This document shows positions 42,135-57,835 of a stretch of DNA of 64,000 nucleotides, one piece after another (position 1 is the first letter of the stretch; each line of letters begins with the position of its first letter). The DNA lies in the NCBI GenBank assembly GCA_963843385.1, contig CAWJJY010000007.1, positions 1,974,028 through 2,038,027 on the forward strand, written 5' to 3'. The DNA comes from an uncultured Acidobacteriota bacterium (GTDB taxonomy: Bacteria > Acidobacteriota > Vicinamibacteria > Vicinamibacterales > JAKQTR01). The notes below the pieces were generated by a model. It saw only the letters and a list, made by a program, of their open reading frames with translations. It was not told the origin of the DNA and made no database searches. The translations under genes were made by a program, and so were the position numbers.

Positions 42135-43334
42135 CTACTGCCTGAAGATGCCGAGGCGCTGGAGACCGCTGACCGCGTTGAAGGTCACCAGCAGTTCCAG
42201 CCGACGGGCGTTCGGAATCGCGATCGTGTTGTGCGACGCCTGCGTGCCGAAGAACTGGAGGCCGAACTCGGGCGTGAGCTTGAACGTGGCTGTCTCGAAG
42301 AAGCGCTTGCCGCGAAAATATCGGTCCCCGTTCGTCGTGGGTGCGAGGTTGTCGATATCGGCATATCCGAGCCCCGCCGCAAACCGCCTGGTGATGGCCT
42401 TCTCGCCGTAGATCGCGTACCCGGAACCGCCCTGCGGGTCACGACGAAAGTACTGCTCGAACCTGACCATGTCCACGATGACGAGCGGCAGTGTCCTGGC
42501 CACGACCGCGTACCGGAACGTGGGCACCCCGGTCAGCCTCGAATACTCGGCTGACGCAGTCAGCTGCCTGGTGACGTTCTTGGTCGCGAAGAACTGGACG
42601 TAGTTCGGTTCATCGCTCAGCCGCCTGTAGCGGTTCGTGATGCTCGGGCTCGTCAGGTCGCCGAGGTACGCCGAGGTCACGCCAAACTCGTCGAGGAAGA
42701 AACCCTTCGGGCGTTTCACGCTCACACGTTCGCCGACCAGATACCCGTCATTGTCGTAGGTGGTGATCTCGGTGGACTCGCCGCGCATCACGCCGAAACC
42801 GCCGATGCTGATCTCGACGCCCGGCACCGGAACGGCCGCGACGTAGAACTGCTTGAGATACCAGTGATTGAAGCTGTCGCCGGTGCCGATGCCGGTGTTG
42901 TTCCAGCCGCCCGTGAACGTATTGCCAGTGGCGTAGACCGCATTGACCGTATAGCGCCCCTTCGGATCGAACTTGAACCGGCCCTTGAACTGGCCGGAAT
43001 CCTGGATCTGGCTGGTCGTCCGGACATCGCGGCTGTTCACGATCGTACGCTGGCGGAGAGAGACGGTTCCGATCTGCAGTTCGAACCAGCGGCTCAGCCT
43101 CGACGGCTTGGGCTTGGCCTCAGCATCCTTCCCTTTCTTCTGGGCCTTCTTGTCATCCGCGTTTCCGGTCACCGACGACGGGTTGGCGGCGACGCTGCTC
43201 TGAACCTCCGCCTGCGTGGTCTGACTCGAACGCTGCCGCGCCAGGAGACTCGAGGGAACCAGGACCAACGCCACGATCGAGATGGTGGCGATCTGGACGC
43301 GGGTAGCAATTGCCGGGCGGGCGGTTGACGTCAT
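42135..43334 (-). CDS. Putative outer-membrane beta-barrel / porin-like protein (family not recognised)
   Basis: GGAGG lies before ATG 43334. The hydrophobic N-terminus (RVQIATISIVALVLVPSSLLA) is followed by a Lys-rich linker. The rest alternates amphipathic strand-like segments rich in G/Y/F/T (RYTVNAVYATGNTFTGGWNNTG, GYAIYGEKAITRRFAAGLGYADI). Confidence 0.5.
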   Translation of the reverse strand: MTSTARPAIATRVQIATISIVALVLVPSSLLARQRSSQTTQAEVQSSVAANPSSVTGNADDKKAQKKGKDAEAKPKPSRLSRWFELQIGTVSLRQRTIVNSRDVRTTSQIQDSGQFKGRFKFDPKGRYTVNAVYATGNTFTGGWNNTGIGTGDSFNHWYLKQFYVAAVPVPGVEISIGGFGVMRGESTEITTYDNDGYLVGERVSVKRPKGFFLDEFGVTSAYLGDLTSPSITNRYRRLSDEPNYVQFFATKNVTRQLTASAEYSRLTGVPTFRYAVVARTLPLVIVDMVRFEQYFRRDPQGGSGYAIYGEKAITRRFAAGLGYADIDNLAPTTNGDRYFRGKRFFETATFKLTPEFGLQFFGTQASHNTIAIPNARRLELLVTFNAVSGLQRLGIFRQ

Positions 43335-43772
43335 CGGGGGCCTCCTTCGGCTGCTGGGGCTGACAGCGAACATCCACTGCAGTGGCCGGGTGCCGCCGAA
43401 GTTGAGCACGTGGCCACGCCCGTTCAAGCCGGTTCGACGAAACACCGATTGCACCGGCCTCGCCATCCTTGCGGCCGGTCCGGAACCCCGCGCCACGACC
43501 GCGCGACCGGGTCCCCCTCTTGGTCCCAGAGACCGATGAAGGCGTTTCCTGTGATGATAGCCCGAATCGTGTCCTGCTTCGCGCAGGTCCGGCCGGCATG
43601 CCCCGCGCGGCTGGATCCGGACGTGCCGTGAGCGGTCGTGCGGAGCCTGGATGCGGCGAGGTAGGTGCGGCCGCCTCGTCGAGTCACGGATATCGCGTCC
43701 CGAGTCAGAGCGGCGGCGAGCGGCGCATTCACGCCCGGGTGCGATCGAATCGGCGAGCGTGCGAGCAGGCGG

Positions 43773-46028
43773 TCATCCTGCCGCGCGCAGCCCGGCCGCC
43801 TGCACGCTGCCGAGCGTCGTCAGGTTCACGACGTCCTGCACGGAGTTGCCGTACTGCAGGAGCTGAACGGGCAATCGTGTTCCCGTCAGGATGGGGCCGA
43901 CCAGCACCGTGTCACCCACCGCCTGCAGCAGGTGCATGGCCATGTTGCCCGACTGCAGGTCGGGAAACACCAGGACATTGGCGTCCTTGTCGAGCGCGGA
44001 GAATCCGAAGTATCGGCTCCGAATCTCGCGGTTGACGGCCGTGGCGATCTGCATCTCGCCGTCCACGGCCAGGCCCGGAGAGCGTTCCTTGACGATTTCG
44101 GTCGCCCGCCGCACCTTTCGCGCAAACGGGTGGTCGACCGAGCCGAAGTTCGAGAACGACAACATCGCCACGCGGGGCTCGATGCCCAGCAGCCGGACCA
44201 TGCGCGAGGTCAACAGTGCCGTCTCCGCCAGGCCGTTCTCGTCGGGTTCGATGGCGACGGCGCAGTCGGCAAGGAAGAACACGTCCTTCGGCAGCAGCAC
44301 CATGTAGTAGCTCGACACGCGGCTGATCCCGGGCGCGGTCCCGATCGTCTCGAGCATCACACGCAGCGAGTCCGCGTAGTGGTGCTCGATGCCGCCGACG
44401 AGCAGGTCGGCGTCGCCGCTGTGGAGCATCATGGCGCCGAAATACTCCGGCCGACGGAGGCGCTGCTCCGCCGTGGGGCGCATCACCCCGCGCCGGCGCC
44501 GCTGGCGCACGTGCTCGTCGACATATGCATCGCGTTTCGGACTGCGGGAGGGATCCACGATGAGCAGGCCGGACGGGTCCAGCCCGGCGCGAACGAGGCC
44601 GGCGCGAATCTCGGCCTCGTCGCCGAGCAGGACGGGCCGCGCCACGCCTTCGTCAGCGAGGATGGCGGCGGCGCGCTGGATGATCTCGGAGGTGCCGTCG
44701 GCAAAGACGGTCCGAAGGGGTTCCTGCCTCGCCCTCACCATGAGCCGCCGCATCATGCCCGTGCCCGTTCCAATCCTCACGGTCAGGCTCTCCTGGTACG
44801 CCACGTCTTCGACCGGCCGGCCGGCCACGCCGTCCTTCACCGCCTGGCGTGCAACCGCCGCGGACTGGCGAACGAGGATCCGGGGATCGATGGGTTTCGG
44901 CAGCAGGTACTCCGGCCCGAAGCTGAGTCGTTCGTAACCGTACGCCCGGCTGACTTCGTCGGCCACTTCGTCGCGGGCCAGATCGGCGAGCGCCCTCGCG
45001 GCAGCCATCAGCATCCCGTCGGTGATCCGGGCCGCCTGGACGTCGAGGGCTCCGCGGAAGATGTACGGAAAGCTCAGGTGATCGACAATCGCGTTGGGAA
45101 AGCGCGTGAGGCTGGTCGCCACGATCACGTCGCGGCGGCTTTCTCGCGCGGACTCGTAGCCGATCTCAGGTTCGGGCGTCGCCATCGCCAGCACGATGGG
45201 GAACCGCGCCATCGAGCGGATCATCTGCTGTGAGAGCACGCCGCCGGCGGACGCCCCGATGAACACGTCGGCGCCCCGCAGCCCGTCCTCGAGCGCGCGC
45301 GGCGCATCCGCGCGTGAGAAGGCCCGCTGATGAGGTCCGATGTCCTGCCGGTCGGGATGCACGAGGCCGTTGAGGTCGTAGAGCCGGAGCTGTTCGGCCT
45401 TCGCGCCCATGCCGATCAGGAATCGCGCGCAGCCGATGCCGACCGTGCCCGCGCCGCAGATCACGATGGCCGCGTCGGCAATCGTCTTCTCCGCGAGATC
45501 GAGCGCGTTGAGGAGCGCGGCCGCCATCACGACCGCCGTGCTCTGGAGGTTCTCGTGCACGACGGGGATGCGAAGGCCCTCGCACAGGCGCGCGTAGATC
45601 TCGAGGCCTTCAGGGGCCTTGATGTCCTTGAGGTCGATTCCGCCGAAGGTCGGCTCGAGCATCTGGACCGTGTCGACGAAGCGGCCCGGGTCCCCGGTGT
45701 CGAGCTCGAGATCGAACACGTCGATGTCGGCCAGCCGCTTGAAGAGCACGGCCGTCCCTTCCTGCATGGGCTTCGCGGCGAGCGGCCCGACGTCCCCGAG
45801 CCCGGGCACCGCCGAACCGTTGGTGATGACGCCGACCAGGTTGCCACGGGCGGTGTACCGGAACGCCGCGTCGGGATCGGCGTGGATGGCGGCGCCCGGG
45901 AAACACGCACCGGGCAGGTAGGCCAGCCGCATTTCGCGGGCGGTGAGGCACGACTTCGTGGTCCGCAGCTCGATCTTCCCGGGCCGATCCGCTTCGTGGT
46001 ACGCGAGGGATTCATCGGGACGAATCAT
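43773..46028 (-). CDS. MaeB-type malic enzyme + phosphotransacetylase-like domain protein, with a divergent active site
   Basis: Overall collinear with NADP-malic enzyme MaeB (YTARGNLVGVITNGSAVPGLGDVG, EPTFGGIDLKDIKAPE, CGAGTVGIGC, ATPEPEI, FPYIFRGALDV) plus a C-terminal PTA-like half. Its ATG overlaps the stop of the giant upstream gene (ATGA). See the findings for the substitutions. Confidence 0.8.
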   Translation of the reverse strand: MIRPDESLAYHEADRPGKIELRTTKSCLTAREMRLAYLPGACFPGAAIHADPDAAFRYTARGNLVGVITNGSAVPGLGDVGPLAAKPMQEGTAVLFKRLADIDVFDLELDTGDPGRFVDTVQMLEPTFGGIDLKDIKAPEGLEIYARLCEGLRIPVVHENLQSTAVVMAAALLNALDLAEKTIADAAIVICGAGTVGIGCARFLIGMGAKAEQLRLYDLNGLVHPDRQDIGPHQRAFSRADAPRALEDGLRGADVFIGASAGGVLSQQMIRSMARFPIVLAMATPEPEIGYESARESRRDVIVATSLTRFPNAIVDHLSFPYIFRGALDVQAARITDGMLMAAARALADLARDEVADEVSRAYGYERLSFGPEYLLPKPIDPRILVRQSAAVARQAVKDGVAGRPVEDVAYQESLTVRIGTGTGMMRRLMVRARQEPLRTVFADGTSEIIQRAAAILADEGVARPVLLGDEAEIRAGLVRAGLDPSGLLIVDPSRSPKRDAYVDEHVRQRRRRGVMRPTAEQRLRRPEYFGAMMLHSGDADLLVGGIEHHYADSLRVMLETIGTAPGISRVSSYYMVLLPKDVFFLADCAVAIEPDENGLAETALLTSRMVRLLGIEPRVAMLSFSNFGSVDHPFARKVRRATEIVKERSPGLAVDGEMQIATAVNREIRSRYFGFSALDKDANVLVFPDLQSGNMAMHLLQAVGDTVLVGPILTGTRLPVQLLQYGNSVQDVVNLTTLGSVQAAGLRAAG

Positions 46029-49000
46029 GACGGCACCTCCACCGACGGGCGCACCCGCAAGGGATGGCGGTCGGTCGCCTCACGCCAGACGGCAAACGCG
46101 GACGGAACCGGGCGAACCTGGAGCAGGCTCACGTGCGGACCCTCGAACCCGAACTCGATGTCGAGCGGCGTTCCGTACGCGTGTTCGAGCCGCAAAGCCG
46201 TCTCCACGACCTCGAGCAGTTCCGGATACTCGAGGGCCGGCCGGAGCCGCTGGTGGGCGAGCGTGTCGACCTTGACGGTGCCCTGCCCGAACCGTTCGTC
46301 GTAGACGACGCGCGAGCGTTTGTCGCTCGTCAGGTAGCGGAAGCGCGGCGGGGCGGCGCGGTCGCCGGACTTCGCCACCAGCACGTGGTCGGCCGCCACG
46401 GTCCCCGACACGATGCCTTCGCCGAGCCCGAGCCCGACGTTGATCACCAGCTCGCACGGGTTCGACTGCGCCGCATTGATCGTCTGGACCACGCCTGAGA
46501 CGCGCGACTGCACCATGCGCTGCACGATGACACCGCCGTGCGGGCACCGGCGGTCGTGGCGCTGCAGGCGGTCGCGAATCGCGCGCTCCGTCCAGAGCCC
46601 CGCCCATGCCCGTGTCAGCACCTCCAGCACCCGCGTCTCGCCGCGGATGAACAGAAAGGTCTCGAACTGGCCGGCCCGCGTCTCGCGCTCAGTGTCCTCC
46701 TCGAGCCCGGACGATCGGATGGCGACCGAGTCGGCGCCGAGATCGCGCCACGCGTGGCTCACCTCGACAGCCACGCTGGCCGGGAGGGTCATCCGCCGCC
46801 AGATGTCCTGGATTTCCGACGCCATCCACGTCGGTGTGCGGTCGGACCGATCGAGCACGGCTTCGATGGCCCGCCGCACGGTGCCGCCGGCACCGGCCGG
46901 CACCGCTTGCCGCGCCTCGAGGTCAAACCCGCTGTCCAAGGCCTCCTGAAACGCGCGGTCGGCGATGGCGAACCATCCCGGGATCGCCGCGCCGCCGAGA
47001 ACGCGCGCGGCCTCCGCGAGGTTGGCTGCCTTGCCCCCGACCAGCTGCTCGAGATCGATCCCGCCGTCGCGCGGGACGATGATGAGTCGGTTCGAGAGGG
47101 GCCCCCCTCCAGCCTCCGCGCGGACTCGAGCCGCGGTGGCCACGCGCTCCTCGGCGCCATCGCCAATTCCCTCGATGCCAAGCACCGCGTTCAGGCGGTT
47201 CAGCACAACCCCCAGCCGGCGCGCCGAGCCGAGGCCGGTGTCCGCGAGGATGTCTGCCCGCATTGCGTCCCGGAGTCGCAACAGCCGCTCGGCGGCCAGC
47301 GCGTCGAAGTCGTTCGAATCGCCGATGCCCAGCAGCGCGGGCTTCAGCCCGCATCCTTCGACGGTGGCCTGGACCTGCCGGCAGGACTGCTGTAAGTCGA
47401 ACACCGCCTGGCGCAGCGCCAGCACATCGTGCGCGGTTGTCGCGCGTGGAATCTGCGCGATGGCCCGTTGCCGGGCGTCGGCGAGTTTGCGGGAGAGTGC
47501 GGTTCCCACCTGCGTGACGGACTCGTGCGCGAAGCGTCCGACCTTCGAGTTGCCGATCAGCAGCGACAGCAGCGGCACGAGGTCTCCGCCGCTGCCGCCA
47601 GCGACTGACGCCGCCTCGCCGATCAACAGTTCCTCGACCCCATAGCGGGCCAGGCCCGGATCGGCGATGCGCGGAACGAGCCGTTCGAGCTGGTGCCGGC
47701 TGTGAAGCCGCCGGCCACGCTCTCCAAGCACTTCTTCGGGGCGTGCGCGAGAGAGGCTCTGGCACGCATCGGCGTAGAGGTGGAGCGCCGCGTGAAACGT
47801 GCACGCCAGCGGATCGTGGCCGAGCAGCCGGAGCAGTCCCTGGCCCGCGTCGAGCACCACGAGATCGCCGTCGCGGACGACGTCGTCGACCTCCCGGATG
47901 TCGACGAACTTCACGACCTGGTAGCCGGCGGTCTCGGACGCCTGTTCGCGATACCTGGAGCGTCGACAGGTCAGGCTCGTGTCTCCGCCGGCGGACCGGG
48001 CCCAAGTCCCTTGCACGATGACGGCCGGCCGGCCCGACTCGACCGCCACCAGACCGAGGTGGCTGAGGATTCCTCCGCCGGTAGACACAATCCCCGTCGC
48101 CGCGTGCAGGAATGGTGCATCGGCGGGCTCGAGCCGCTCGGTGACGAGCACACTCCCGGCGCAATCCTCCGGCCGGCGCCCGGCGGTGCCGATTCGAACC
48201 AGGCCCGTGGCGCGTCCGGGCGAGGCGGCCGTCGCGCGAACCAGTCGCTCGCCCGGAAACGCCGCGGCAGGCGGCCGCGGGTGCGGCGTGCGGAACCGGC
48301 GCCGGATCTCCTCTACGGCCGTCCCGTCATCGTCGGCATGCGGCGCCACGGCATCGCCCAGGTAGTTGGCTCGACGGAGCCTGGCAAACAGATCGGCCCC
48401 GTCGCACAACGGGCTGTCCTGCCACTCCCCTCCCGGCTCGGCGCGACGCCGGTAGAGCGCGCCATCCAATGCCGCGCACGCAATCCGTGCCACGCCCTCG
48501 TGGTCCCGCAGCAGAAAGACGCCCAGCGAGGCCCTTCCGAGCGAGAGTGAGGCGTGCTGCACGTCGTACGCGTTGATGCTGCCAATCGTCCGGAAGCGGA
48601 CGCTGCGATCGACGAGCGAGATCAGCCTGGCCACCTGCGCGGCCTGCGCCAGCACCGGCGAGGGCGAGTCCAGGATCTCCACCAGTCGGTCGACCGCGTG
48701 GACGGGTTCGAACACGTCCGGGCTCGATCCGACGGGCCCGTCGGATGTCTCGACCAGCTCGCCCTGGGCGACCGCGGAGCGTAAGGGTTCGAGAATGAGG
48801 GCCTCGAACGGCACCTGCCGCAACAAGCTGGGCACGGCGGCCGGATCGGCCCGCGCGATATTCAGTTGCTCGAGCACGGTCGTCACGTATTCACCGCAGG
48901 CCGCAGGAAACTCGACGGTGAACCGGTCCCGGTATGCACCCTCGCCTGTCCAGCGGACTTCCCGGACTCCCTCCGCTCCTTCTTCGATCGAAACCAGAAT

Positions 49001-51181
49001 GCCGGCCCGGTCCTTCGTCAGGAACTGTTGAACCGGCAGCGCACCCCAGTTCTGGTAGAAATCGGCCCAGGCCGACGCGACCTCCCGCCGGGCCTCGGCC
49101 GGGAGCGCCAGCGACGCAACGGTCCAGTCAACGTCCATCAAGTACGGCACCAGGCCGAACAGCCTTTTCGCCTGGGACACGAGATCGTCCATGCAGACGG
49201 CGCGCTCCTTGTCGTAGCGCGCATGAATGCGCGTCGAGTCGATCTCGACGATGAAGTCGAGCCGTTCGAACATGAGGCGAATGGCGTCGAGCGACGGGCA
49301 GGGGTGCCAGGCCAGTTCGTTGTTGCTGACGCCGAGGTACTGGAGGTCGATCATCCCGCCGCGCAGCGGCGGAGAGTAGTCGACCCTGATGAACGCCGGG
49401 TGATTTCGGAATCGCGCGAAATAGTGGACCTCGTTGCCGTAGCAGAAGACGCTGACCGTCGGAAACGTGCGATGCCCGTGCAGCAGCTGCCGGGCGAACG
49501 CGTCAACGATGAGCGCGACGGAGTCCGGCAGCGCCGGAGCCGTGTCGCCTCCGCCGGTCTCGTCCAGGTCGACGAATTCGAGAGGACGCGCGATCTCGAG
49601 TGGCCGCGACGGAGTCACGACGGCGAAATCGATCGTGCGCGTCGCTCGCGGCCCGGACGGCACCAATCCAAACGCCAGCTTCAGCCCCCGCTGGTGGAGA
49701 TAGCGCTTCAGGCCGTGGAGCGTGTGAATGTCGCGCGGCCCCGCGGGGTCCTCGAAGGCCTGCGCCATTCGACAGGCCTCGATCGGAACCTCGTCTCCAT
49801 CGCACCCGGCGAGCTCCCGCTCGATTCGCGACGTGATGTCGTCGAACACGCCGGCGAGGACCTCGGCTTCATCCCGGTGCGAGCTGAACATGGCGCCGAA
49901 GTCGGACACCAGTCGATCGAGCGTGTCGAAGACCTTCCGAAGGCGGAGACGAGTCAGCGGCGCGAGGTCCAGCAAGTCCGACAGCAGGTCGGCGTGGACG
50001 ACGTTGTAGGCCCTGAACCGGGCGACCGCGTCGCGCGCCGCGAAGGTTTCCGATGGGTCGGCCGCCTGGCCGCCGACCGCGACGACGATGGTCCGCTCGA
50101 ACACGCGGCGCACGCCGGGCCCGCGTTCGAGGATCGACGCTTCGGAAGGGGCGAGCACCAGCGGAAACGATCCCGCCACGCTGAGGCCCACGAAGGTCCG
50201 GGCCTCGAGCCCCATGTTGATACGGCCCCAGCCGAGCGCCGCCACCAGTTCCCTGAACCGCGACGCCCCACACTCGCGCTCGACACGCTGGAACGAGGCG
50301 AGCCCGTCCTTCGTGTCAACCAGGATGCGAGCCCGAATCAGGTCCTCGTGCGTGGCACGCGTGAAGGCCAGCGAGGGCCCGAGCACGGCGAAGCCCTCGT
50401 CGCCGAGCACGCGCCTGGCGAGGTCGTCTGAGGGTGGCCGCCCGTCAAGGTCGAGCAGGCGGGCCGCGAGGCGCTGAATGCCCGGCGTCTGACCCCGCTC
50501 GATCAGATTGGCTTCCGCGGCCGCCGTTACGCCCTCGACACCAGCGCCGCCATCCGTCCCGGCCCGGGCCCTGACGATCTGCCGGATCACCCGAAGGTCG
50601 GCGTCGCCAGAGAGTCCGCTGCCCTGCTGGTCGAGGCGATCGGCGAGAGCCTGGAGGACGGGATCCGACACGATGAGGGTCCCGGCATCGGCCGCCCGTG
50701 CGATGGCCTCGAGTGCGCGCCTGGCCAGCCCGGAGTCGTCGAGCGACAGCAGGGGCGCGAGGATCGGCCACGGATCGGACACGCTCTCGGCGAACTCTTC
50801 GAGCAGCCCAAACACGGAGGCAGCCACGGGGCCGGCGCGCCGGCCAAGCAGTGGCAGCAGTCGAGCGAATGACTCGCGGCTGGCGGGAAGGGCCCACGAC
50901 GCGCGCTGCCCTCTCACCTCGGCACAGGCGGCGTCGACCGTTTCCTGTCGAGGGAGATAGGACGAGCACGCCGCCGCAAGGGCACGAAGGGCGTCGTCGA
51001 GCAGATCACAGGAGAGGGATTCGCCAGCCGGCCGAGCGGCAGGCGGATGATCCGCCGGGCCCGATTCAACCTCTGGCACCGCCCGAAACCCCCGGGGGCC
51101 ACGCTGTCGTTGATGAACCGGTCCGATATGCGGGGGACGGGGGCCGTAGACACGAGCAGTATAGACCAGCCGCGAATCCAC
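46025..51181 (-). CDS. Giant (1,718 aa) PEP-utilising-enzyme-type phosphotransferase/dikinase-like protein: unknown N-terminal ~975 aa, phosphohistidine swivel domain, helical linker, C-terminal PPDK_N ATP-grasp domain
   Basis: Swivel domain, aa ~980-1060: GRATGLVRIG...VLVTERLEPADAPFLHAATGIVSTGGGILSHLGLVAVESGRPAVIV, with His1041. ATP-grasp, aa ~1366-1695: LVGGKAANLAEAARVLG..IPGWF, VAIRSSGLEEDTERETRAGQFETFL, VIVQRMVQSRVSGVVQT, NVGLGLGEGIVSG, PLDIEFGFEGPHVSLLQVRP. No PEP/pyruvate TIM-barrel motifs seen. Start is GTG 51181 and is uncertain. Confidence 0.8.
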   Translation of the reverse strand: MDSRLVYTARVYGPRPPHIGPVHQRQRGPRGFRAVPEVESGPADHPPAARPAGESLSCDLLDDALRALAAACSSYLPRQETVDAACAEVRGQRASWALPASRESFARLLPLLGRRAGPVAASVFGLLEEFAESVSDPWPILAPLLSLDDSGLARRALEAIARAADAGTLIVSDPVLQALADRLDQQGSGLSGDADLRVIRQIVRARAGTDGGAGVEGVTAAAEANLIERGQTPGIQRLAARLLDLDGRPPSDDLARRVLGDEGFAVLGPSLAFTRATHEDLIRARILVDTKDGLASFQRVERECGASRFRELVAALGWGRINMGLEARTFVGLSVAGSFPLVLAPSEASILERGPGVRRVFERTIVVAVGGQAADPSETFAARDAVARFRAYNVVHADLLSDLLDLAPLTRLRLRKVFDTLDRLVSDFGAMFSSHRDEAEVLAGVFDDITSRIERELAGCDGDEVPIEACRMAQAFEDPAGPRDIHTLHGLKRYLHQRGLKLAFGLVPSGPRATRTIDFAVVTPSRPLEIARPLEFVDLDETGGGDTAPALPDSVALIVDAFARQLLHGHRTFPTVSVFCYGNEVHYFARFRNHPAFIRVDYSPPLRGGMIDLQYLGVSNNELAWHPCPSLDAIRLMFERLDFIVEIDSTRIHARYDKERAVCMDDLVSQAKRLFGLVPYLMDVDWTVASLALPAEARREVASAWADFYQNWGALPVQQFLTKDRAGILVSIEEGAEGVREVRWTGEGAYRDRFTVEFPAACGEYVTTVLEQLNIARADPAAVPSLLRQVPFEALILEPLRSAVAQGELVETSDGPVGSSPDVFEPVHAVDRLVEILDSPSPVLAQAAQVARLISLVDRSVRFRTIGSINAYDVQHASLSLGRASLGVFLLRDHEGVARIACAALDGALYRRRAEPGGEWQDSPLCDGADLFARLRRANYLGDAVAPHADDDGTAVEEIRRRFRTPHPRPPAAAFPGERLVRATAASPGRATGLVRIGTAGRRPEDCAGSVLVTERLEPADAPFLHAATGIVSTGGGILSHLGLVAVESGRPAVIVQGTWARSAGGDTSLTCRRSRYREQASETAGYQVVKFVDIREVDDVVRDGDLVVLDAGQGLLRLLGHDPLACTFHAALHLYADACQSLSRARPEEVLGERGRRLHSRHQLERLVPRIADPGLARYGVEELLIGEAASVAGGSGGDLVPLLSLLIGNSKVGRFAHESVTQVGTALSRKLADARQRAIAQIPRATTAHDVLALRQAVFDLQQSCRQVQATVEGCGLKPALLGIGDSNDFDALAAERLLRLRDAMRADILADTGLGSARRLGVVLNRLNAVLGIEGIGDGAEERVATAARVRAEAGGGPLSNRLIIVPRDGGIDLEQLVGGKAANLAEAARVLGGAAIPGWFAIADRAFQEALDSGFDLEARQAVPAGAGGTVRRAIEAVLDRSDRTPTWMASEIQDIWRRMTLPASVAVEVSHAWRDLGADSVAIRSSGLEEDTERETRAGQFETFLFIRGETRVLEVLTRAWAGLWTERAIRDRLQRHDRRCPHGGVIVQRMVQSRVSGVVQTINAAQSNPCELVINVGLGLGEGIVSGTVAADHVLVAKSGDRAAPPRFRYLTSDKRSRVVYDERFGQGTVKVDTLAHQRLRPALEYPELLEVVETALRLEHAYGTPLDIEFGFEGPHVSLLQVRPVPSAFAVWREATDRHPLRVRPSVEVPS

Positions 51182-51228
51182 GGGGGATTACCTGAACCGA
51201 GCCCTCACCGCGTCACCGGCCGCGGCGA

Positions 51229-51251
51229 GCCGCTCGACTTCGACGAGCGGC
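51229..51251 (-). other. Hairpin (GCCGCTCG-7 nt-CGAGCGGC) in the 85-nt gap between the HlyD-family gene and the giant gene
   Basis: 8-bp perfect stem with no U tract. It could be a partial terminator, an attenuator or an mRNA-stability element. Confidence 0.3.
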
Positions 51252-51266
51252 GTGTGCTTCGCAGAG

Positions 51267-52493
51267 CTATCGCGCCGCCTGGATTTCGCGCAGCGTCACT
51301 CGAGTCCCGTCGGCGATCTGGTCGCCCGGATGGACGATGACCTGGTCGCCGGATTTCAGGCCGCCGAGCAGCTCGGCGGTCACGCCATTGCGCTGGCCAA
51401 TGGTCACGGGGCGAAGCCGCGCGCGACCGCTCTCGACCGAGAAGGCCGCCCATCGATCACCCTGTCGGAAAAGCGCGCTCGTGGGGATCTGCAGGGCGTC
51501 GGTGCGCTCCCACGTGATGATGCGAGCTTCGACGCGGTAGGCGTCGCCGAGCGTCCGCCACGCCTCGTACGGATCCTCAAGTTCGACCACCACCCAGACG
51601 CGCTGTTCCTCGACACCAAGGGCCGAGACCTTCAGGAACGCCGAGGGTTCGACACGCCGGACGCGCCCCTTGAGCGGGCTGGCTCCCCCCCACCGGTCGA
51701 TGAGCGCCGGCATGCCCGGTCGCATGCGCACCGCATCGGTTGACAGGAAGTCGGCGATGACCTCGAGCGCGGCGGGATCGGCCACCTCGATGAGCGGCTC
51801 TCCCTGCGCGACGACCGATTCGCTCTGCCGAATGCGTTTGAGAACCACGCCGTCAATCGGGGACCTCACCCCGACCGATTTCGGTGCACTGGCTGCGGTC
51901 ACGCCGCTGCCAGGCTCGACCAGCGTCGCGCGAGCAGTCTCCAGGTCGTGAGCTGCGGCTGCCACGGCCGCCTCGGCTGCCTGCAGCGAGCGCCCCCGCA
52001 CATCGGCCTCGGATGCGGCGGCGGCGCCGGCCTGGCGCGTGGCCAGTCCCTGCTCGACGAGCGACTGCATCCGATGGGCCTCTGACGAGGCAAAGTCGCT
52101 CGAAGCTTTGGCCTGCTCACGCTCGGCCCGCACGCGATCGAGCGTCGCAGAAGCCGCCTGGACCCGAGAGATGGACTCGGCGCGGGTCCTCGCGTCGAGC
52201 AGCGGCGGCGCAGCCGGCATCAGAGTCGCCAGGACCGTCTTGCCGCGCGCGACCGGATCGCCGGGCTCGAGTTCGATGCGCAACACCCGTCCGGCTACCG
52301 GCGCAGACACCACGAACCGTTCCCGGACGCGCGTGACCCCTTCATGGTCCAGGGTCACCCGCATCGGTCCCGACGTGATCGTCGCCTGATCGACCGCACT
52401 CGCACGCGGCAGCAGGGCTACGACGAGCGCTGCGAGCCCAACCAGCCCGATGACGGTCCAGATGATGACTCGTCGTCTGGTCGCGGTGGTCAT
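51267..52493 (-). CDS. HlyD/MacA-family periplasmic adaptor of an ABC exporter
   Basis: N-terminal TM anchor VIIWTVIGLVGLAALVVALL. Lipoyl-like block: VSAPVAGRVLRIELEPGDPVARGKTVLATL. A coiled-coil follows, then SPIDGVVLKRIRQSESVVAQGEPLIEVAD. Its start lies 3 nt after the permease stop. Confidence 0.85.
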   Translation of the reverse strand: MTTATRRRVIIWTVIGLVGLAALVVALLPRASAVDQATITSGPMRVTLDHEGVTRVRERFVVSAPVAGRVLRIELEPGDPVARGKTVLATLMPAAPPLLDARTRAESISRVQAASATLDRVRAEREQAKASSDFASSEAHRMQSLVEQGLATRQAGAAAASEADVRGRSLQAAEAAVAAAAHDLETARATLVEPGSGVTAASAPKSVGVRSPIDGVVLKRIRQSESVVAQGEPLIEVADPAALEVIADFLSTDAVRMRPGMPALIDRWGGASPLKGRVRRVEPSAFLKVSALGVEEQRVWVVVELEDPYEAWRTLGDAYRVEARIITWERTDALQIPTSALFRQGDRWAAFSVESGRARLRPVTIGQRNGVTAELLGGLKSGDQVIVHPGDQIADGTRVTLREIQAAR

Positions 52494-52496
52494 GTC

Positions 52497-54869
52497 TTAC
52501 TCCCTCGTCTTCAGGACTTCCACCAGGTCGAGCCGGTCGAGCCGGCCGCGGACGGCAATGGCCGAGATCGCCGTCGCGGCGGCGACGGTCAGGGCGGAGA
52601 ATGCGTAGGCGCCCGGGCGAACCACCAGCGGGAGCCTCCACAGCTCGGTGTCCATCGCGCCCCGCATCGATTCGACCATCCCGAGGCCGATCAGCAGGCC
52701 GGCCGGGATGGCGACGATCGTGAGAAGCGCGAGCTCACCGAGCAGGATGTAGGAAATCTCGCCTCGGCTGAAGCCGATGACCCGAAGCGTGGCCAGCTCG
52801 CGGCTTCGCTCCGACAGCGAGATGCGGGCGTTGTTGTAGACCACGCCGAAAGCGATGATCGCGGCAAACAGCACGAAGATGGCCAGCATCTGGTTCATGA
52901 GCGCCCCCATCGACTCTTGAAGGCTTTCGCGGGCCGCGCGTTTGAGCAACACGCTTCCGACTCGCGGGGTGGCCTTCAGACGCCGATACAGCTCATCTGT
53001 CTGCATCGCATCAACCTGCAGGTACGCTCCGGAGACGGTGTCTCCCTCCTCCATGAGTCGGTGGAGCGCGGCGAGGTTCATATAGACGTTCAGGCCCATG
53101 TATTCGTCGACCAGGTCGGCAACCGGGAGCGTCCTGGACGCACGTCCGCCTTCGAGAATGTCCACGGTCACGGCGTCTCCGCGCGACACGCCGAGCACGC
53201 GCCCGAGTTTCTCGGAGAGCACGAGGCCGTCGGGCGGAAGCGTGATCACCCGCATCGAGGCGTCGACGACCCGATTCAGGCGCGGGCTGGCGGGAGCGCC
53301 CAGGATCGCCGTGATTCGAGACCGCGCCCCGCTTCGAATTCGGACCGGCACGGCGCGGAACGGCTCGGCGTCGATCACCCCTGGCAGGCGGCGCAGTTCC
53401 TCGGTCGCAGACGACGACGAGGGTTCGACCAGGCTGACCATCACGTCGAATCGCTGGGCAACATCGAATTGCGTGTCCATCAGCATGTCGATTGAGCCGG
53501 TCGCGAAGCTGCCCACGACGAGCAGCGACCCCGCGAGTCCGACGCCGACGACCGACGCCACCGCCCGCCCAGGGTGGCGTTCCAGCGTGCGCACGATCAT
53601 CCGCTCGGGCTCGGGCAGGAATCGTTTCAGTCCGATGCGCTCTGCGAAGCTGACCCGGTACCGCGCAGGGAGCTCCGGGCGCATCGCTTCCGCGGGCGGG
53701 AGCTTCACCGCGCGTCCCACGGCGCCGACTGCCGCGAGAACGGCCGACGCGACGCCCACCGCCAGCGCACCGATCAACAAACGCGGCTGCAGACTGTAGA
53801 GCAGAATCGGGAAGTCGAAGAAATCCGTGTAGAGCTTCGTGTAGGCCTTCCCGAGCCACGCGCCAACGCCAATTCCGAGCACGGAGCCGGCCACGGCGAT
53901 GGCGAGACTCCATTTCACGTAGTGCCACGCGACCTCGAAGTTTCCGTAGCCCAGCGCTTTGATCGCGGCTATCTGCGGCCGCTGCACCGTCACGATGCGC
54001 TGCAGCACGACGTTGAGCAGGAACGCCGCCACGCCAAGGAAGATGACCGGGATGATCGCGCCGAAACCCTCGAGCTGCGCCAGTTCGTTCGCCAGGTACC
54101 AGTGAGAGGGCTGCAGGGCTCGCGGCATGGCTCCGATCCCGCCGTAGCCGCTCTCGAGGAGTCGATCGAGCCTGGCCACGACCTCGGCTTCCGACGCGCC
54201 TCGGGTCAACCGCAGCAGGACGCTGTTGAACGCGCCATCCAGGCTGAAGGCGGTCGAGAGCGCCCGGCGTTCCATCCAGAAGACGCCAAAGCGCTTCTCG
54301 TCGGGAATCAGCTCGCCGGGTCGAATCGGATAGACGTATTCGGGCGACAGCGCGAGGCCGACAATCCGCAGCGCGCGGCGACGGCCGTTGATGATCGCGA
54401 CCACTGAATCGCCGGGGCCCAGGCCGTGCGAGCGGGCGAACTTCTCGCTGGCGAGGACCTCGTCGGGCCGCCCGGCCTCGAGATAGCGCCCTTCGCGCAG
54501 GAAGATGTCGCAGAGCACCGGCCGCTCGGGCGCAGGCACCGAGATCAGGCGGCCGACGGCCGGCTCCGACAACCCGGGCACGTCCAGCGTCACGTCGACG
54601 ACGACCCGGGTGTCGACCTGGGCTACGCCGGGAATCTCGGCAATGGTCCCGGCGACCGAGTTCGGGGCACGCTTGAGCGAGGCGAACACGTCGGCGAATC
54701 GATACCGGTCGTAGTAGGTGCGCAGCGTGAGGTCGAGCGCGTCGAAGGTGGAAAACATCGACACGAATATCGAGATGCCAGCCGCCACCACGAGCGCGAT
54801 GGCGACAGCCTGGCCCTTGATACCCCAGAGGTCCCTCACGAGCTTGCGATCGAGCGCCGAGAGCTTCAT
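52497..54869 (-). CDS. ABC transporter permease with two FtsX-like (MacB/YbbP-type) modules
   Basis: From ATG 54869: MKLSALDRKLVRDLWGIKGQAVAIALVVAAG. Two repeats of a large periplasmic loop plus the 4-TM FtsX pattern (IAAIKALGYGNFEV..., LATLRVIGFSRGEISYILLGE...). Confidence 0.85.
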   Translation of the reverse strand: MKLSALDRKLVRDLWGIKGQAVAIALVVAAGISIFVSMFSTFDALDLTLRTYYDRYRFADVFASLKRAPNSVAGTIAEIPGVAQVDTRVVVDVTLDVPGLSEPAVGRLISVPAPERPVLCDIFLREGRYLEAGRPDEVLASEKFARSHGLGPGDSVVAIINGRRRALRIVGLALSPEYVYPIRPGELIPDEKRFGVFWMERRALSTAFSLDGAFNSVLLRLTRGASEAEVVARLDRLLESGYGGIGAMPRALQPSHWYLANELAQLEGFGAIIPVIFLGVAAFLLNVVLQRIVTVQRPQIAAIKALGYGNFEVAWHYVKWSLAIAVAGSVLGIGVGAWLGKAYTKLYTDFFDFPILLYSLQPRLLIGALAVGVASAVLAAVGAVGRAVKLPPAEAMRPELPARYRVSFAERIGLKRFLPEPERMIVRTLERHPGRAVASVVGVGLAGSLLVVGSFATGSIDMLMDTQFDVAQRFDVMVSLVEPSSSSATEELRRLPGVIDAEPFRAVPVRIRSGARSRITAILGAPASPRLNRVVDASMRVITLPPDGLVLSEKLGRVLGVSRGDAVTVDILEGGRASRTLPVADLVDEYMGLNVYMNLAALHRLMEEGDTVSGAYLQVDAMQTDELYRRLKATPRVGSVLLKRAARESLQESMGALMNQMLAIFVLFAAIIAFGVVYNNARISLSERSRELATLRVIGFSRGEISYILLGELALLTIVAIPAGLLIGLGMVESMRGAMDTELWRLPLVVRPGAYAFSALTVAAATAISAIAVRGRLDRLDLVEVLKTRE

Positions 54870-54897
54870 GGCCGCGTTCCGTCCGGGGGGCGGCTGG

Positions 54898-55638
54898 TCA
54901 CCACTTGATCTCGCGCGGAGACAGCCGTGTCGCGTTCCGCCTGTCGTCGACGATGCGTCCGTCGGCGAGCGTGACGACACGGTGAGCCATCGCCGCAATG
55001 GCGGCGTTGTGCGTGATGACACAGACCGTGGTGCCCGTCTCGCGATTGACCCGTTCGAGCGCCTCGAGCACGACCACCCCGGTCGTGATGTCGAGCGCGC
55101 CGGTCGGTTCGTCGCACAGCAGCACGTCCGGCCGCTTGGCGATGGCGCGCGCGATGGCGACCCGCTGCTGCTCGCCCCCCGACATCTGCGCCGGGAAGTG
55201 TTCCGCCCTGTCGTCGAGGCCCATCAGCGCGAGCGCGTCGCCCGGCTGGAGCGGGTCGTCGCAGATCTCGGTGACCAGGTCCACGTTTTCGCGGGCGGTC
55301 AGGCTCGGGATCAGGTTGTAGAACTGGAACACGAAGCCGACGCTGCGGCGCCGGTAGGCGGTCAGCCGCGACTCGTCGGCAGCGGTGAGGTCTTCCCCGC
55401 GAAAGAACACCTCGCCGCTGGTCGGCTGGTCGAGGCCGCCCAGGATGTTCAGCAGCGTGGATTTTCCGCTCCCCGAGTGGCCGAGCAGGACGAGGATCTG
55501 GCCCCGGTCCACGTCGAGATAGACACCCCGCAGTGCGTGCACCAGCACCTCGCCCATCGTGTAGATCTTCGTCACGTCGTGGACGTGGAAGATCGCCGAC
55601 TGATCCGCCTGCGGGTGATCAAGAGATGAAGGAAGCAT
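54898..55638 (-). CDS. ABC transporter ATP-binding protein (MacB/LolD-like)
   Basis: Walker A is [10 protein letters not shown]-loop is VFQFYNL, signature is [14 protein letters not shown], Walker B is [13 protein letters not shown]-loop is VITHN. Confidence 0.9.
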
Positions 55639-55651
55639 CGTGCTGTCGCTC

Positions 55652-56386
55652 TCAGTCCTGCTTCGTGATCCCGGGCTCGGCGATCCGGCGCCACAGGTCG
55701 AACACTCTCCGAAAGAGCCGGTCCTGCTCCACAGGACTCAGGTGATCGAGATGGTCGACCATCCAGTGATCGGCCGCCTGGTCGGCCGCCGTCAGGACGT
55801 CCAGCAACATGGCCGATGGGAGGTCAGCACGGACGGCCCCTGCCTGCTGGCCGCGTTCGATCAGGGCCGAGAGCCAGGCACGGCCCTGCTGGATCCGCGC
55901 CTTGAGCAGATCGTCCAGTTCGCTCGCCGGAAGCGGGTGATACAACAGGCGTCCGACACCGGCCAGCCAGGGCAGCTCACGGATCCGCTGCCGCGTGGCG
56001 AACGAGAGCGCCTCGAGACGAGGCCAGAAGGTGTCGGCCCGCAGCGCACCGATGTCGACCGATCGATCCGGGAAGAGCGTCTCCCACACCAGTTCCACGA
56101 CCGCCCCGAACAGGTCCGCCTTGCTGTCGAAGTAGTAGTAGAAGACGCCCTTGCTCAGTCCGAGCGCCTCGATGATGTGGTTGAGCGAGGCCCGCTCGAA
56201 CCCATGGGCGGCAAATTCCGAAGCCGCTGCCTCGAGAATGACCTGTCGCCTGGCAGGGTCCAGCCGGGCGAAGCGTGGACGTGGCACGGCCGCACCTCCA
56301 GTCGTTTCGGGGACTACTGAGCAGGACCGACGACACGCTTGCGGCGATCCAGTGGGGGCGGGAGGAACTCGATCGGACCAGAGCAC
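55652..56386 (-). CDS. TetR/AcrR-family transcriptional regulator, first gene of the ABC exporter operon
   Basis: HTH region: [48 protein letters not shown]. Its stop lies 13 nt before the ABC ATPase start. The true start (GTG 56386 or an internal GTG) is uncertain. Confidence 0.85.
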
Positions 56387-56420
56387 CCATGGCGAGCGCT
56401 CATCGTAGACTCAGTGATAG

Positions 56421-56432
56421 AACCGTACGGTT
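56421..56432. promoter_or_regulatory. Perfect 12-bp palindrome AACCGTACGGTT, a candidate TetR operator
   Basis: It lies 35 nt upstream of the tetR GTG in the divergent intergenic region. It is flanked by further partial inverted and direct repeats (GTAGAC...GTCTAC, GTGATA...TATCAC, TAGACT x2). Confidence 0.45.
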
Positions 56433-56503
56433 AGACTGCGTGGTCTACATTATCACGATTCCTGGCCGCTGACCAGAAGTCCTTGTTCCCCTGAGGACTC
56501 GGT

Positions 56504-56533
56504 GTGACTTCCGGGTCGGTCAGGGTGTAGAAT
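56504..56533 (+). promoter_or_regulatory. Candidate promoter GTGACT-N18-TAGAAT for the 56639 gene
   Basis: The hexamers were read directly in a locally AT-richer stretch. The predicted ~100-nt leader contains a T8 run (56617-56624) just before the GGAG RBS. Confidence 0.35.
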
Positions 56534-56638
56534 CTTTGGTGGTTTTATTGTGTCCCCTCGGAGAGGGTCCGCCGAAACCAGAGCAGTGGCTCCGTGCGCC
56601 CGGCCGGCGTGGTCCCTTTTTTTTGGAGACGAATACCG

Positions 56639-57835
56639 ATGACGCTCAACACATGTAAGCAAACCGCCGTCCTCGCCATCCTGGCCATGGTGCTCCTGGT
56701 CGCCGGAGCGACCGGCCTCGCCGCTCAGCCTGCGCCGAGCGACGGCTTCAAGAATCTTCAACGCCTTGGAGGTCCCTACCAGTTCAGCGCACAACTGAAG
56801 GACCTGGCCGCGGTCAAGCGGATGGCGGCGCGGAAGCCGATTCAGAAGGACCTCGGCACCGTGATGGAGAAAGCGGGACTGACTTCCCTGACGCAGAATG
56901 TCATCGACATCCTGTCCAAAGGCGATCCAGAGCAGCTCAAGGAGACCGAGTTCCAGCCGGGCGACACGATGGTCTGGATGGCGTTCCGTCGCGGCTCGAA
57001 GCCCGATATCGTCCGGAACCTGAAGTGGGCCGGCAAGAAGCCCTTCCCCGCATACATGTTCGTCATCGACGACATGGACAAGACCTACACGTTCATCCTG
57101 CCGAAGGCGTGCGCCAACCTGGCGCTTCAGTCCAGCGAGCCGAGCCGGGAGAAGGCCAAGCTGGACGCCGCGCAGCGAGAGAAGGAGCGTCTCGAACTCG
57201 AGCGCGTCAACCGAGAGAAGGCCGCGGCTGATGCGGCGCGGCTGGAGGCCGAACGCAAAGAGCAGGAACGCCTCGCCGCGGAGCGTGCCGCCGCTGCGGC
57301 TGCTGCAGCCGCCAAGGCCGAGGCCGACCGTCAGGAAGCCGCGCGCGTCGAGGCGCAGCGGGTGGAACAGGAGCGCATCGCCGCCGAGAAGGCGAAGGCA
57401 ATCGGCCTGTTCGCCGATTTCCTGTTCGGCAAAGAGCGCCGGGTGCGCGTCGACAACGTGGGCGGGCTCTGTGCGCCGCTGTTTGGCGCCAAGGTCGGCT
57501 ACATGTTCCAGGCGGGCCCGAATTTCTACATTGCGCCGGCCATCGGGGAAGCGCTGAACTTCGACCGCAATGCGAACTCGAGCTTCTTCGGCGAGGTCGA
57601 GGCCAACTACTTCGCGAACAAGAACCTGTTCGGAGCCGGTATCGCGGTGTGGGACATCACGCACAGCGACTGGGTGTCGCCGACCTTCATGGTCCACTAC
57701 GGCCGGCAGCTCAACCAGGATTCGCACGGCAACAAGGTGTTCTTCCTGGGTGAAGGCCGTCTATTCCTGAACCGGCTTGGTGACATCCAGAACAACTACC
57801 AGGCCTGGGCGGGCGTCCGGTTCATCCTGCGCTAG
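56639..57835 (+). CDS. Secreted protein: N-terminal domain, Glu/Ala/Arg/Lys coiled-coil (TolA-like) linker, C-terminal small beta-barrel-like domain
   Basis: Signal MTLNTCKQTAVLAILAMVLLVAGATGLAAQ. Coiled-coil: EKAKLDAAQREKERLELERVNREKAAADAARLEAERKEQERLAAERAAAAAAAAAKAEADRQEAARVEAQRVEQERIAAEKAK. The C-terminus is rich in G/F/Y/N strand-like segments and ends AWAGVRFILR. Confidence 0.6.
   Translation: MTLNTCKQTAVLAILAMVLLVAGATGLAAQPAPSDGFKNLQRLGGPYQFSAQLKDLAAVKRMAARKPIQKDLGTVMEKAGLTSLTQNVIDILSKGDPEQLKETEFQPGDTMVWMAFRRGSKPDIVRNLKWAGKKPFPAYMFVIDDMDKTYTFILPKACANLALQSSEPSREKAKLDAAQREKERLELERVNREKAAADAARLEAERKEQERLAAERAAAAAAAAAKAEADRQEAARVEAQRVEQERIAAEKAKAIGLFADFLFGKERRVRVDNVGGLCAPLFGAKVGYMFQAGPNFYIAPAIGEALNFDRNANSSFFGEVEANYFANKNLFGAGIAVWDITHSDWVSPTFMVHYGRQLNQDSHGNKVFFLGEGRLFLNRLGDIQNNYQAWAGVRFILR

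Follow-up and report, generated by a model that had tools for sequence, protein, structure and literature searches.

Enzymes of the PEPS/PPDK/Rph superfamily work by a phosphoryl relay, in which an ATP-grasp domain moves the β-phosphate of ATP to a histidine on a swivel domain and the swivel carries it to the acceptor site. In the plant enzyme GWD, an N-terminal substrate-binding region is followed by the catalytic histidine and then by a C-terminal nucleotide-binding domain. The catalytic histidine of potato GWD is His992 (PMC12892837). Recruitment of the superfamily to an antibiotic acceptor is known from the rifampin phosphotransferase Rph (PMC4844700), and VadK of M. tuberculosis, a kinase derived from PPDK, phosphorylates itself and interacts with enzymes of metabolism (bioRxiv 10.1101/2025.10.30.685616). 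Here we describe a locus with a giant gene of this superfamily, located at 43773–56386 of a 64,000-nt stretch of contig CAWJJY010000007.1 from an uncultured Acidobacteriota bacterium; this whole stretch is called the window. Six genes on the minus strand encode a TetR-family regulator, an ABC ATPase, a permease with two FtsX domains, an HlyD adaptor, the giant phosphohistidine dikinase-like protein and a MaeB-like paralogue (pseudo-MaeB). The nearest characterised relatives of the exporter genes are MacAB-TolC and YbbAP-TesA (PMC5985334, PMC12646458). A sequence-only reading of the window had proposed that the TetR-controlled exporter and the dikinase form one system, with two adjacent independent units as the fallback. 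Our comparison of gene neighbourhoods points to the fallback: with a probability of about 85%, the locus consists of two independent units, and the giant gene and the pseudo-MaeB gene form a real conserved entity.

Pfam and NCBIfam assigned domains to all six open reading frames (ORFs) and confirmed the families named in the sequence-only reading. From the coordinates we reproduced junctions of 13 nt between tetR and the ABC ATPase gene, 28 nt between the ATPase and permease genes, 3 nt between the permease and HlyD genes, and a 4-nt overlap between the giant ORF and the MaeB-like gene. The 85 nt reported between the HlyD and giant genes holds for the maximal giant ORF and becomes about 187 nt with the corrected start discussed below. 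An 8-bp hairpin at 51229–51251 and a palindrome upstream of tetR were found where they had been described. The giant was rightly taken for a His-relay dikinase-like protein, and the MaeB-like protein was rightly called degenerate, a condition that extends to its whole family. The exporter had also been said to lack an adjoining outer-membrane factor, and no such domain was found among the flanking ORFs scanned; the gene may sit elsewhere in the genome.

To compare neighbourhoods from the side of the dikinase, 80 genomic loci with 10-kb flanks were retrieved with a 25-member alignment of giants. All are from metagenome-assembled genomes (MAGs) of more than 12 phyla, and the six window proteins served as tblastn queries against each locus. 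In 76 of these loci the giant gene is followed immediately by the MaeB-like gene, and the other four end at a contig edge. The giant stop and the MaeB-like start overlap by 4 nt in 42 of the 76, most other gaps are shorter than 50 nt, and the two genes are predicted to be translationally coupled. When the ORFs in the giant flanks were clustered without bias, no conserved cluster emerged beyond those of the giant and the MaeB-like protein, so that a third neighbour is lacking, and a Pfam census spread 110 immediate neighbours of the pair over 140 families. The pairing was also found from the opposite direction. Two MaeB-like homologues, chosen solely for their long contigs, both have a giant directly upstream, in each case fragmented by frameshifts. 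Such tight coupling across phyla had not been foreseen in the sequence-only reading. Exporter genes, on the other hand, are missing from 78 of the 80 giant loci, including L002, in which the giant shares 58% identity. HlyD and FtsX genes were found near a giant only in L001 and L003, where they lie 6.7–8 kb upstream, and TetR and ABC genes were never linked.

The exporter side gave the same result. Among 80 metagenomic loci holding a permease homologue, 39 of them extending 4 kb or more downstream, neither the giant (0/80) nor the MaeB-like gene (0/80) was detected. An ABC homologue is directly upstream of the permease in 63 of the 65 loci with room for it, and an HlyD adaptor directly downstream in 58 of 59. 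The ATPase, the double-FtsX permease and the HlyD protein make up an ordinary, widespread Type VII (MacB/YbbAP-like) ABC exporter. No TetR homologue was found near the permease by tblastn (0/49 loci), and TetR did not rank with the commonest Pfam families encoded upstream in the permease loci. The TetR gene appears to have joined the exporter trio in this lineage, which the sequence-only reading did not anticipate. Seen from either the giant or the permease, the linkage is not conserved, and a single-system reading is unsupported.

The origin of the adjacency can be seen in the nearest relative of the window, which shares about 80% nucleotide identity with it (L081, identical to L001). By blastn the two sequences are collinear except for 6.7 kb between the HlyD and giant genes of L081, which encode a gamma-glutamyltranspeptidase (GGT), a TonB-dependent receptor (on the opposite strand) and an MCP. 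The window has a breakpoint region of window-specific sequence in place of this stretch (51175–51296, unstranded), which includes the 8-bp hairpin. Because a GGT gene follows HlyD in L003 as it does in L081, the separated state probably came first, and the window would have lost the intervening stretch by deletion. The predicted RNA fold of the HlyD-giant intergenic region was no more stable than that of shuffled sequences (z = 0.65). A second indel lies on the other side of the giant-pseudo-MaeB cassette. A hypothetical protein without a Pfam match is encoded downstream of the MaeB-like gene (42135–43496, minus strand) and has a homologue with 80% amino acid identity at L081:19867-21015; between these two genes L081 has an additional MCP gene and a gene for a 183-aa protein that the window lacks.

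The giant gene also appears to carry its own upstream region. The maximal ORF extends to 51181 and has 1718 codons, of which the first 34 are probably leader and not coding. The start is most likely the GTG at 51079, which gives a gene of 46025–51079 (minus strand) encoding 1684 aa and an HlyD-giant gap of about 187 nt. This start is preferred because the closest giant homologue (P0001, 77% identity) begins with MPEAESGP, matching VPEVESGP at this GTG in the window, because indels upstream of it are not multiples of three, and because the AlphaFold2 (AF2) model has a predicted local distance difference test score (pLDDT) below 40 for residues 1–54 of the maximal ORF, which are predicted to be disordered. 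A DNA alignment to L001, L002 and L003, with such frame-breaking indels, defines a conserved non-coding leader at 51080–51174 (minus strand). A −10-like box, TATACT(GC), is located at 51156–51163, 77–79 nt upstream of the start codon, and all four sequences (the window, L001, L002 and L003) have the TATACT box at −77 to −79 despite their differing upstream genes. Homology with L081 restarts at this box, about 95 nt ahead of the start codon of the giant gene. The sequence TATACTGC is found a single time in the 64 kb of the window, versus 0.07 occurrences expected. An Rfam scan of the intergenic region and leader gave no match at E ≤ 1, and consensus scans for sigma-70 promoters and terminators across the module gave counts at the level of shuffled sequences and were uninformative. 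The conserved leader has the signature of a putative promoter and leader travelling with the giant gene.

With these results, an integrated system can be weighed, in which a TetR-controlled exporter and the dikinase would, for example, phosphorylate a metabolite, polymer or antibiotic and then export it. The arrangement in the window does invite this idea: six co-directional genes are separated by short gaps with no canonical terminator, the exporter is less than 10 kb from the giant in two relatives (L001 and L003), and rifampin phosphotransferase provides a resistance role within the superfamily (PMC4844700). However, the linkage is missing in 78 of 80 giant loci and in 80 of 80 permease loci, L001 and L003 carry other genes in between, one of them on the opposite strand, the giant gene comes with a conserved leader of its own, and its protein lacks any domain related to secretion or membranes. 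We consider an integrated system extremely unlikely, and synteny, a check that the sequence-only reading had itself proposed, has already largely refuted its headline. The fallback of two adjacent independent units is supported by synteny, by the indel and by the leader of the giant gene. The exporter operon (51267–56386) and the dikinase/pseudo-MaeB cassette with its leader (43773–51174) are very probably unrelated as units of transcription and function, and neighbours in this lineage only.

Several points weigh against this view of the locus and of the cassette as a conserved entity with a sensing partner. No U-tract terminator separates the HlyD and giant genes, and read-through from the exporter operon into the giant gene is possible in this organism. 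The TATACT box is a match in sequence, found in just the four closest genomes. The 80 giant loci all come from MAGs, and some giant genes are broken by assembly frameshifts. The pairwise identities of giant and pseudo-MaeB correlate (r = 0.80), a value confounded by shared phylogeny, and contact between the two proteins is a presumption. Finally, the highly conserved, remodelled pocket of pseudo-MaeB could reflect a new catalytic activity instead of sensing.

The giant protein itself combines a familiar catalytic half with a large unfamiliar one. In its 1718-codon ORF, Pfam and NCBIfam recognised only two domains. The first is a PEP-utilizers swivel at residues 1009–1112 (47846–48157, minus strand; PF00391, E = 2.4e-9), with PPDK swivel domains among its PDB matches. 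Its predicted phospho-acceptor, H1041 in the motif GGGILSH (codon 48059–48061), is invariant in 25 of 25 sequences. The second is a C-terminal ATP-grasp domain of the PPDK_N type at residues 1379–1692 (46106–47047, minus strand; PF01326, E = 5e-51), which matched structures of PEPS and rifampin phosphotransferase with E-values down to 6.5e-31. Its PEPS-type motifs GGKAANL, VAVRSSxxEED and LQVRP are intact and invariant in the 25-sequence alignment. Neither Pfam nor NCBIfam detected the PF02896 TIM barrel that binds phosphoenolpyruvate (PEP) or pyruvate, and NCBIfam equivalog scores were far under their cut-offs (e.g., 214 vs 883). A carbohydrate-binding domain (CBM45 or CBM20) was not detected by Pfam. 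The order of family-specific region, swivel, linker and ATP-grasp is uniform in the family.

For the first ~1000 residues of the giant, no model was found in Pfam, NCBIfam or the PDB. AF2 predicted residues 1–1000 with a pLDDT of 86.4. Residues 55–316 form an all-helical region with ARM/HEAT-like repeats in the model (50234–51019, minus strand; pLDDT 86), for which the best Foldseek matches in the PDB were ARM, importin and HEAT proteins; these matches are weak, none having an E-value below 0.0099. Residues 317–985 form a family-specific central module (48227–50233, minus strand; pLDDT 87.4, predicted template modelling score 0.82) of alpha/beta domains with the invariant residues H489-GLKRYLHQ, E584, H594, R599, R655/D657/K658 and D685. 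A Foldseek search with this module gave no match (best E of 0.14 in the PDB and 0.016 in BFVD), and its profile matched PDB sequences only through chance phycobiliprotein matches (E ≥ 0.5). In the AF2 model the module thus has a high-confidence predicted structure and a fold without a detectable relative, and it is presumed to be the acceptor-binding or catalytic part. Its nominal Foldseek matches to biotin protein ligases and to AlaRS C-Ala were rejected as noise (E ≥ 0.14, probability ≤ 0.25).

The family that carries this module is rare. An exhaustive phmmer search against 1.84e9 representatives, clustered at 50% identity, returned 181 matches at E ≤ 0.001, and the 150 matches listed were full-length proteins of ~1,400–1,940 aa or shorter pieces. 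Protein searches located members in Acidobacteriota, Desulfobacterota, Eisenbacteria, Latescibacterota, Planctomycetota and others. The family is uniform, with a length of ~1,600–1,790 aa and with PF00391 and PF01326 in every member. Six members scanned with Pfam contained only the swivel and PPDK_N, and no additional domain was found in unusually long or short ones.

Some irregularities were noted among individual giant loci. A gene of the BPL_LplA_LipB family (weak Pfam match; L083:1772-2731) lies just upstream of one giant, and the top Foldseek matches of the central module were biotin protein ligases, at non-significant E-values of 0.14–0.6; the agreement is probably a coincidence. The giant is split into called genes of 1024 and 319 aa at L082:2807-8004, with an opposite-strand call of 383 aa between them, and into 1499 and 176 aa at L083:2867-7947. 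Similarly, an AcrB-type RND pump gene that is intact in the window (38774–41941, 1055 aa) is in three pieces at L081:21175-24342. These split giant and pump genes in long-contig MAGs look like assembly frameshifts, not biology. Furthermore, the MaeB-like protein of the window is 100% identical to P0252 in the protein collection, and the best giant match there reaches only 77%; the giant of the source genome seems to be missing from the collection or called differently in it.

Pseudo-MaeB (43773–46028, minus strand; 751 aa) contains the malic N domain PF00390, Malic_M PF03949 and PTA_PTB PF01515, and it aligns end to end with MaeB structures from Bdellovibrio and others (6zng, 9kru; E~1e-180). 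Active-site residues were counted in 71 family sequences. The catalytic general-base Lys is retained in none of them (Thr92 in the window), and the catalytic Tyr is retained in 69. The metal Glu is replaced by Lys in 62 and the metal Asp by Asn in 68 (K134 and N160 in the window). In the ANPEPE motif the substrate Asn is Thr in 61 sequences (T284 in the window), and the NN pair is altered too. The catalytic motif of Pta, Ser309-Arg310 in M. thermophila numbering, is changed to Gln-Tyr in 61 sequences (Q725-Y726 in the window).

The nucleotide-binding features of pseudo-MaeB were preserved to a larger extent. The Rossmann GxGxxG motif is kept, and the CoA contacts R535, K538, R581, N616, Y576 and N718, as defined in the Bdellovibrio MaeB structure (PMC7902834), are retained in 60–68 of the 71 sequences. 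The acyl pocket is changed at T614 (to A), Y721 (to L or M) and K722 (to H or Q). Column identity in the remodelled malic-enzyme pocket is 0.75–0.84, and the mean pairwise identity is 0.64 for pseudo-MaeB versus 0.44 for the giant. Judged by its sequence, pseudo-MaeB would be a distinct, strongly constrained MaeB paralogue, and not a conventional malic enzyme or Pta.

The public names of the two genes tell a different story. JGI/IMG lists pseudo-MaeB proteins (e.g., P0258-P0371) as 'malate dehydrogenase (oxaloacetate-decarboxylating)(NADP+)' and giants (e.g., P0012-P0120) as 'pyruvate, water dikinase', which would make the cassette an ordinary gluconeogenic pair of a working NADP-malic enzyme and a PEP synthase or PPDK, converting malate to pyruvate to PEP. 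Part of the context agrees with this. Oxaloacetate decarboxylase (OAD) genes are the only recurrent neighbours of the cassette, found in 8 of 80 loci from Acidobacteriota and Ignavibacteria (L022, L026, L029, L038, L040, L043, L065, L079; OadB in 7, OadA in 7) and in varying orientations. Examples are L038:10628-13616 and L043:16447-19434, which encode a Na+-translocating OAD_beta protein and an OadA-like protein with PYC_OADA, HMGL-like and biotinyl domains. In two loci a beta-carbonic anhydrase gene is the immediate neighbour. These neighbours give a weak hint that the cassette is linked to the pyruvate/oxaloacetate/CO2 (C3/C4) node. A gluconeogenic pair nevertheless is very unlikely: throughout the family other residues stand in for the general-base Lys, for two of the three metal ligands and for the substrate Asn residues, pseudo-MaeB scores 648 against the NCBIfam NADP-ME cut-off of 1178, and the giant has no PF02896 barrel and a reversed domain order. 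The JGI/IMG names of both genes are probably a systematic mis-annotation that feeds into metabolic reconstructions from MAGs.

For the function of the cassette we propose, tentatively and with the odds somewhat against it, a sensor-gated dikinase. The C-terminal ATP-grasp domain would load a phosphoryl group from ATP onto the swivel His1041, and the swivel domain would carry it to an acceptor held by the central module (residues 317–985). The relay from ATP via phosphohistidine to the acceptor is expected to be the same as in PpsA and PPDK. The N-terminal ARM-like repeats may provide a docking surface, and pseudo-MaeB could be a ligand-sensing partner (for acyl-CoA, NAD(P) or a dicarboxylate) that gates or scaffolds the dikinase. 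Like MaeB, it would probably be hexameric via its PTA hub, and an acyl-CoA-driven conformational switch might then gate the dikinase. We infer all of these elements: that a phosphoryl relay operates, that the two proteins are physical partners, that pseudo-MaeB senses a ligand and that the cassette has any link to C3/C4 metabolism.

The most far-reaching reading of the cassette is, in our estimate, less likely than not. Giant and pseudo-MaeB would then form a new complex, in which a CoA-ester-sensing rotary MaeB hexamer with its malic chemistry deleted serves a phosphohistidine dikinase of a new class as the subunit that regulates it or holds the acceptor. This class would have a new-fold acceptor module of ~670 aa and produce a novel phospho-metabolite, or a phosphorylated polymer or protein, at the PEP-pyruvate-oxaloacetate node, in Acidobacteriota, Bacteroidota/Ignavibacteria, Desulfobacterota and ~10 more mostly uncultured phyla.

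The changes in the pseudo-MaeB pocket are concerted and highly conserved (Lys for Glu, Asn for Asp, a hydrophobic residue for Lys), with a net charge of about +2. They might indicate a split dikinase with the acceptor bound in trans, in which the pocket, with Lys in place of the metal, holds a C3/C4 acid or a nucleotide-linked acceptor that is phosphorylated by His1041~P to a new phospho-metabolite. Split dikinases exist, for example phenylphosphate synthase, and both the translational coupling of the two genes and the weak contextual link to oxaloacetate decarboxylase are in keeping with such a division of labour. On the other hand, the giant's own module of ~670 aa, with invariant His, Arg, Lys and Asp residues, could hold the acceptor itself, and docking of the swivel on the partner would have to be assumed. 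Acceptor binding in trans thus seems unlikely to us.

The ARM/HEAT-like region, a typical protein-binding scaffold, raises another option, namely a regulatory protein kinase in which His1041~P phosphorylates pseudo-MaeB or a target bound to the ARM repeats. VadK is a precedent for such a role. However, most characterised superfamily members phosphorylate hydroxyl or enol groups of small molecules or glucans, no conserved surface Ser, Thr or His acceptor was identified in pseudo-MaeB, and the Foldseek matches to ARM proteins are weak (E ≥ 0.0099). Protein phosphorylation is accordingly rated as rather improbable.

A self-contained cassette of two genes in highly variable neighbourhoods could also be mobile and act in defence or as a toxin by draining ATP or NAD(P). 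The searches for such a role speak against it. PADLOC gave no match for the giant, a marginal match for the MaeB-like protein (E1-E2, E = 4e-4) and generic ABC matches for the ATPase, with no assignment to a defence system, and tblastn found the central module absent from 72,556 plasmids and 50,697 phage records. Moreover, the neighbours are housekeeping or signalling genes and not defence islands, and identities broadly follow taxonomy. A defence module can hardly be credited, and for the giant and pseudo-MaeB the sensor-gated dikinase remains our proposal.

The genes of the exporter unit have the features expected for their families. The ABC ATPase (54898–55638, minus strand; Pfam ABC_tran, E = 1.3e-35) resembles YbbA, LolD and the nucleotide-binding domain of MacB, with YbbA as its best NCBIfam match (E = 3e-59). 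The YbbP-like permease of Type VII (52497–54869, minus strand) contains two FtsX stretches (Pfam, E = 1.9e-29), and its ATG start at 54869 was verified; homologues align from residues 1–3. The periplasmic adaptor of the HlyD/MFP type (51267–52493, minus strand) matched Pfam HlyD_3 and NCBIfam RND_mfp, the latter above the cut-off with 101.8 bits. The tetR gene (55652–56386, minus strand; Pfam TetR_N at residues 50–96, E = 2.7e-15) is given as the maximal ORF, and its true start is possibly further downstream. Upstream of it, a candidate TetR operator predicted from sequence (56405–56448, unstranded) consists of nested inverted repeats with a common centre. A repeat search found a perfect 12-bp palindrome, AACCGTACGGTT, at 56421–56432 (AACCGT/ACGGTT), and an outer GTAGAC/GTCTAC inverted repeat is concentric with it. 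TetR and the palindrome are plausible local regulators of the exporter. Just upstream of tetR, two long ORFs overlap on opposite strands (56453–57727, minus, 424 aa; 56594–57835, plus, 413 aa), neither of which has a Pfam, NCBIfam or PADLOC match.

These results have consequences beyond the locus. Where metabolic reconstructions from MAGs (Acidobacteriota, Ignavibacteria, Syntrophobacter and others) rely on the public names, they probably credit the organisms with a malate-to-pyruvate-to-PEP route that the cassette cannot supply. A rare family strictly paired with a dead MaeB paralogue in more than 12 phyla offers a well-defined starting point in the search for a novel phosphotransfer reaction or a novel way of regulating metabolism, and pseudo-MaeB would be a natural example of an allosteric enzyme hub that outlived its catalysis. 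The dissolution of the TetR-exporter-dikinase super-module into chance adjacency is a useful negative result.

Compared with known systems, the exporter unit is the more conventional part of the locus. Its ATPase is YbbA-like, its permease is YbbP-like with two FtsX domains, and its adaptor is of the MacA/HlyD type, features that it has in common with MacAB-TolC and YbbAP-TesA. It differs from these systems by having an MFP adaptor as partner instead of TesA, by the lack of an adjoining outer-membrane factor gene and by the co-directional upstream TetR gene, which is present in this lineage only.

Pseudo-MaeB is collinear over its full length with MaeB of E. coli and Bdellovibrio, sharing the ME-N, Rossmann and PTA-like domains and the contacts to the CoA nucleotide. 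In contrast to MaeB, every family member examined has lost the general-base Lys, both the Glu and the Asp of the metal site and the substrate Asn residues; in addition, the acyl pocket differs, and the gene is located downstream of a giant gene. A literature search found nothing on a pair of the giant and a MaeB-like protein.

The giant shares with PpsA and PPDK an ATP-grasp domain of the PPDK_N type with intact motifs and a swivel with the conserved His. It differs from them in three respects: the TIM barrel is lacking, the swivel precedes a C-terminal ATP-grasp domain, which is the reverse order, and ~1000 extra N-terminal residues without relatives make the protein twice the size. In layout, it resembles plant GWD and PWD, whose long N-terminal region likewise leads to a catalytic His near residue 1000 and then to a C-terminal nucleotide-binding domain. 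Unlike GWD and PWD, the giant is bacterial, has no detected CBM45 or CBM20 and is paired with a MaeB-like gene, and no GWD chain was found among its PDB matches. Rph, PigC/RedH/HapC, MarK and VadK (Rv1127c) belong to the same superfamily and show how readily it takes on other acceptors (an antibiotic, a pyrrole aldehyde, an aromatic ketone) or a role in regulation. However, these proteins have only ~500–900 aa with an N-terminal ATP-grasp domain, and they have neither the ARM repeats and central module nor the obligatory MaeB-like partner of the giant. The catalytic logic of the cassette is thus that of a known superfamily, and the family-specific module and the pseudoenzyme partner are its unusual part.

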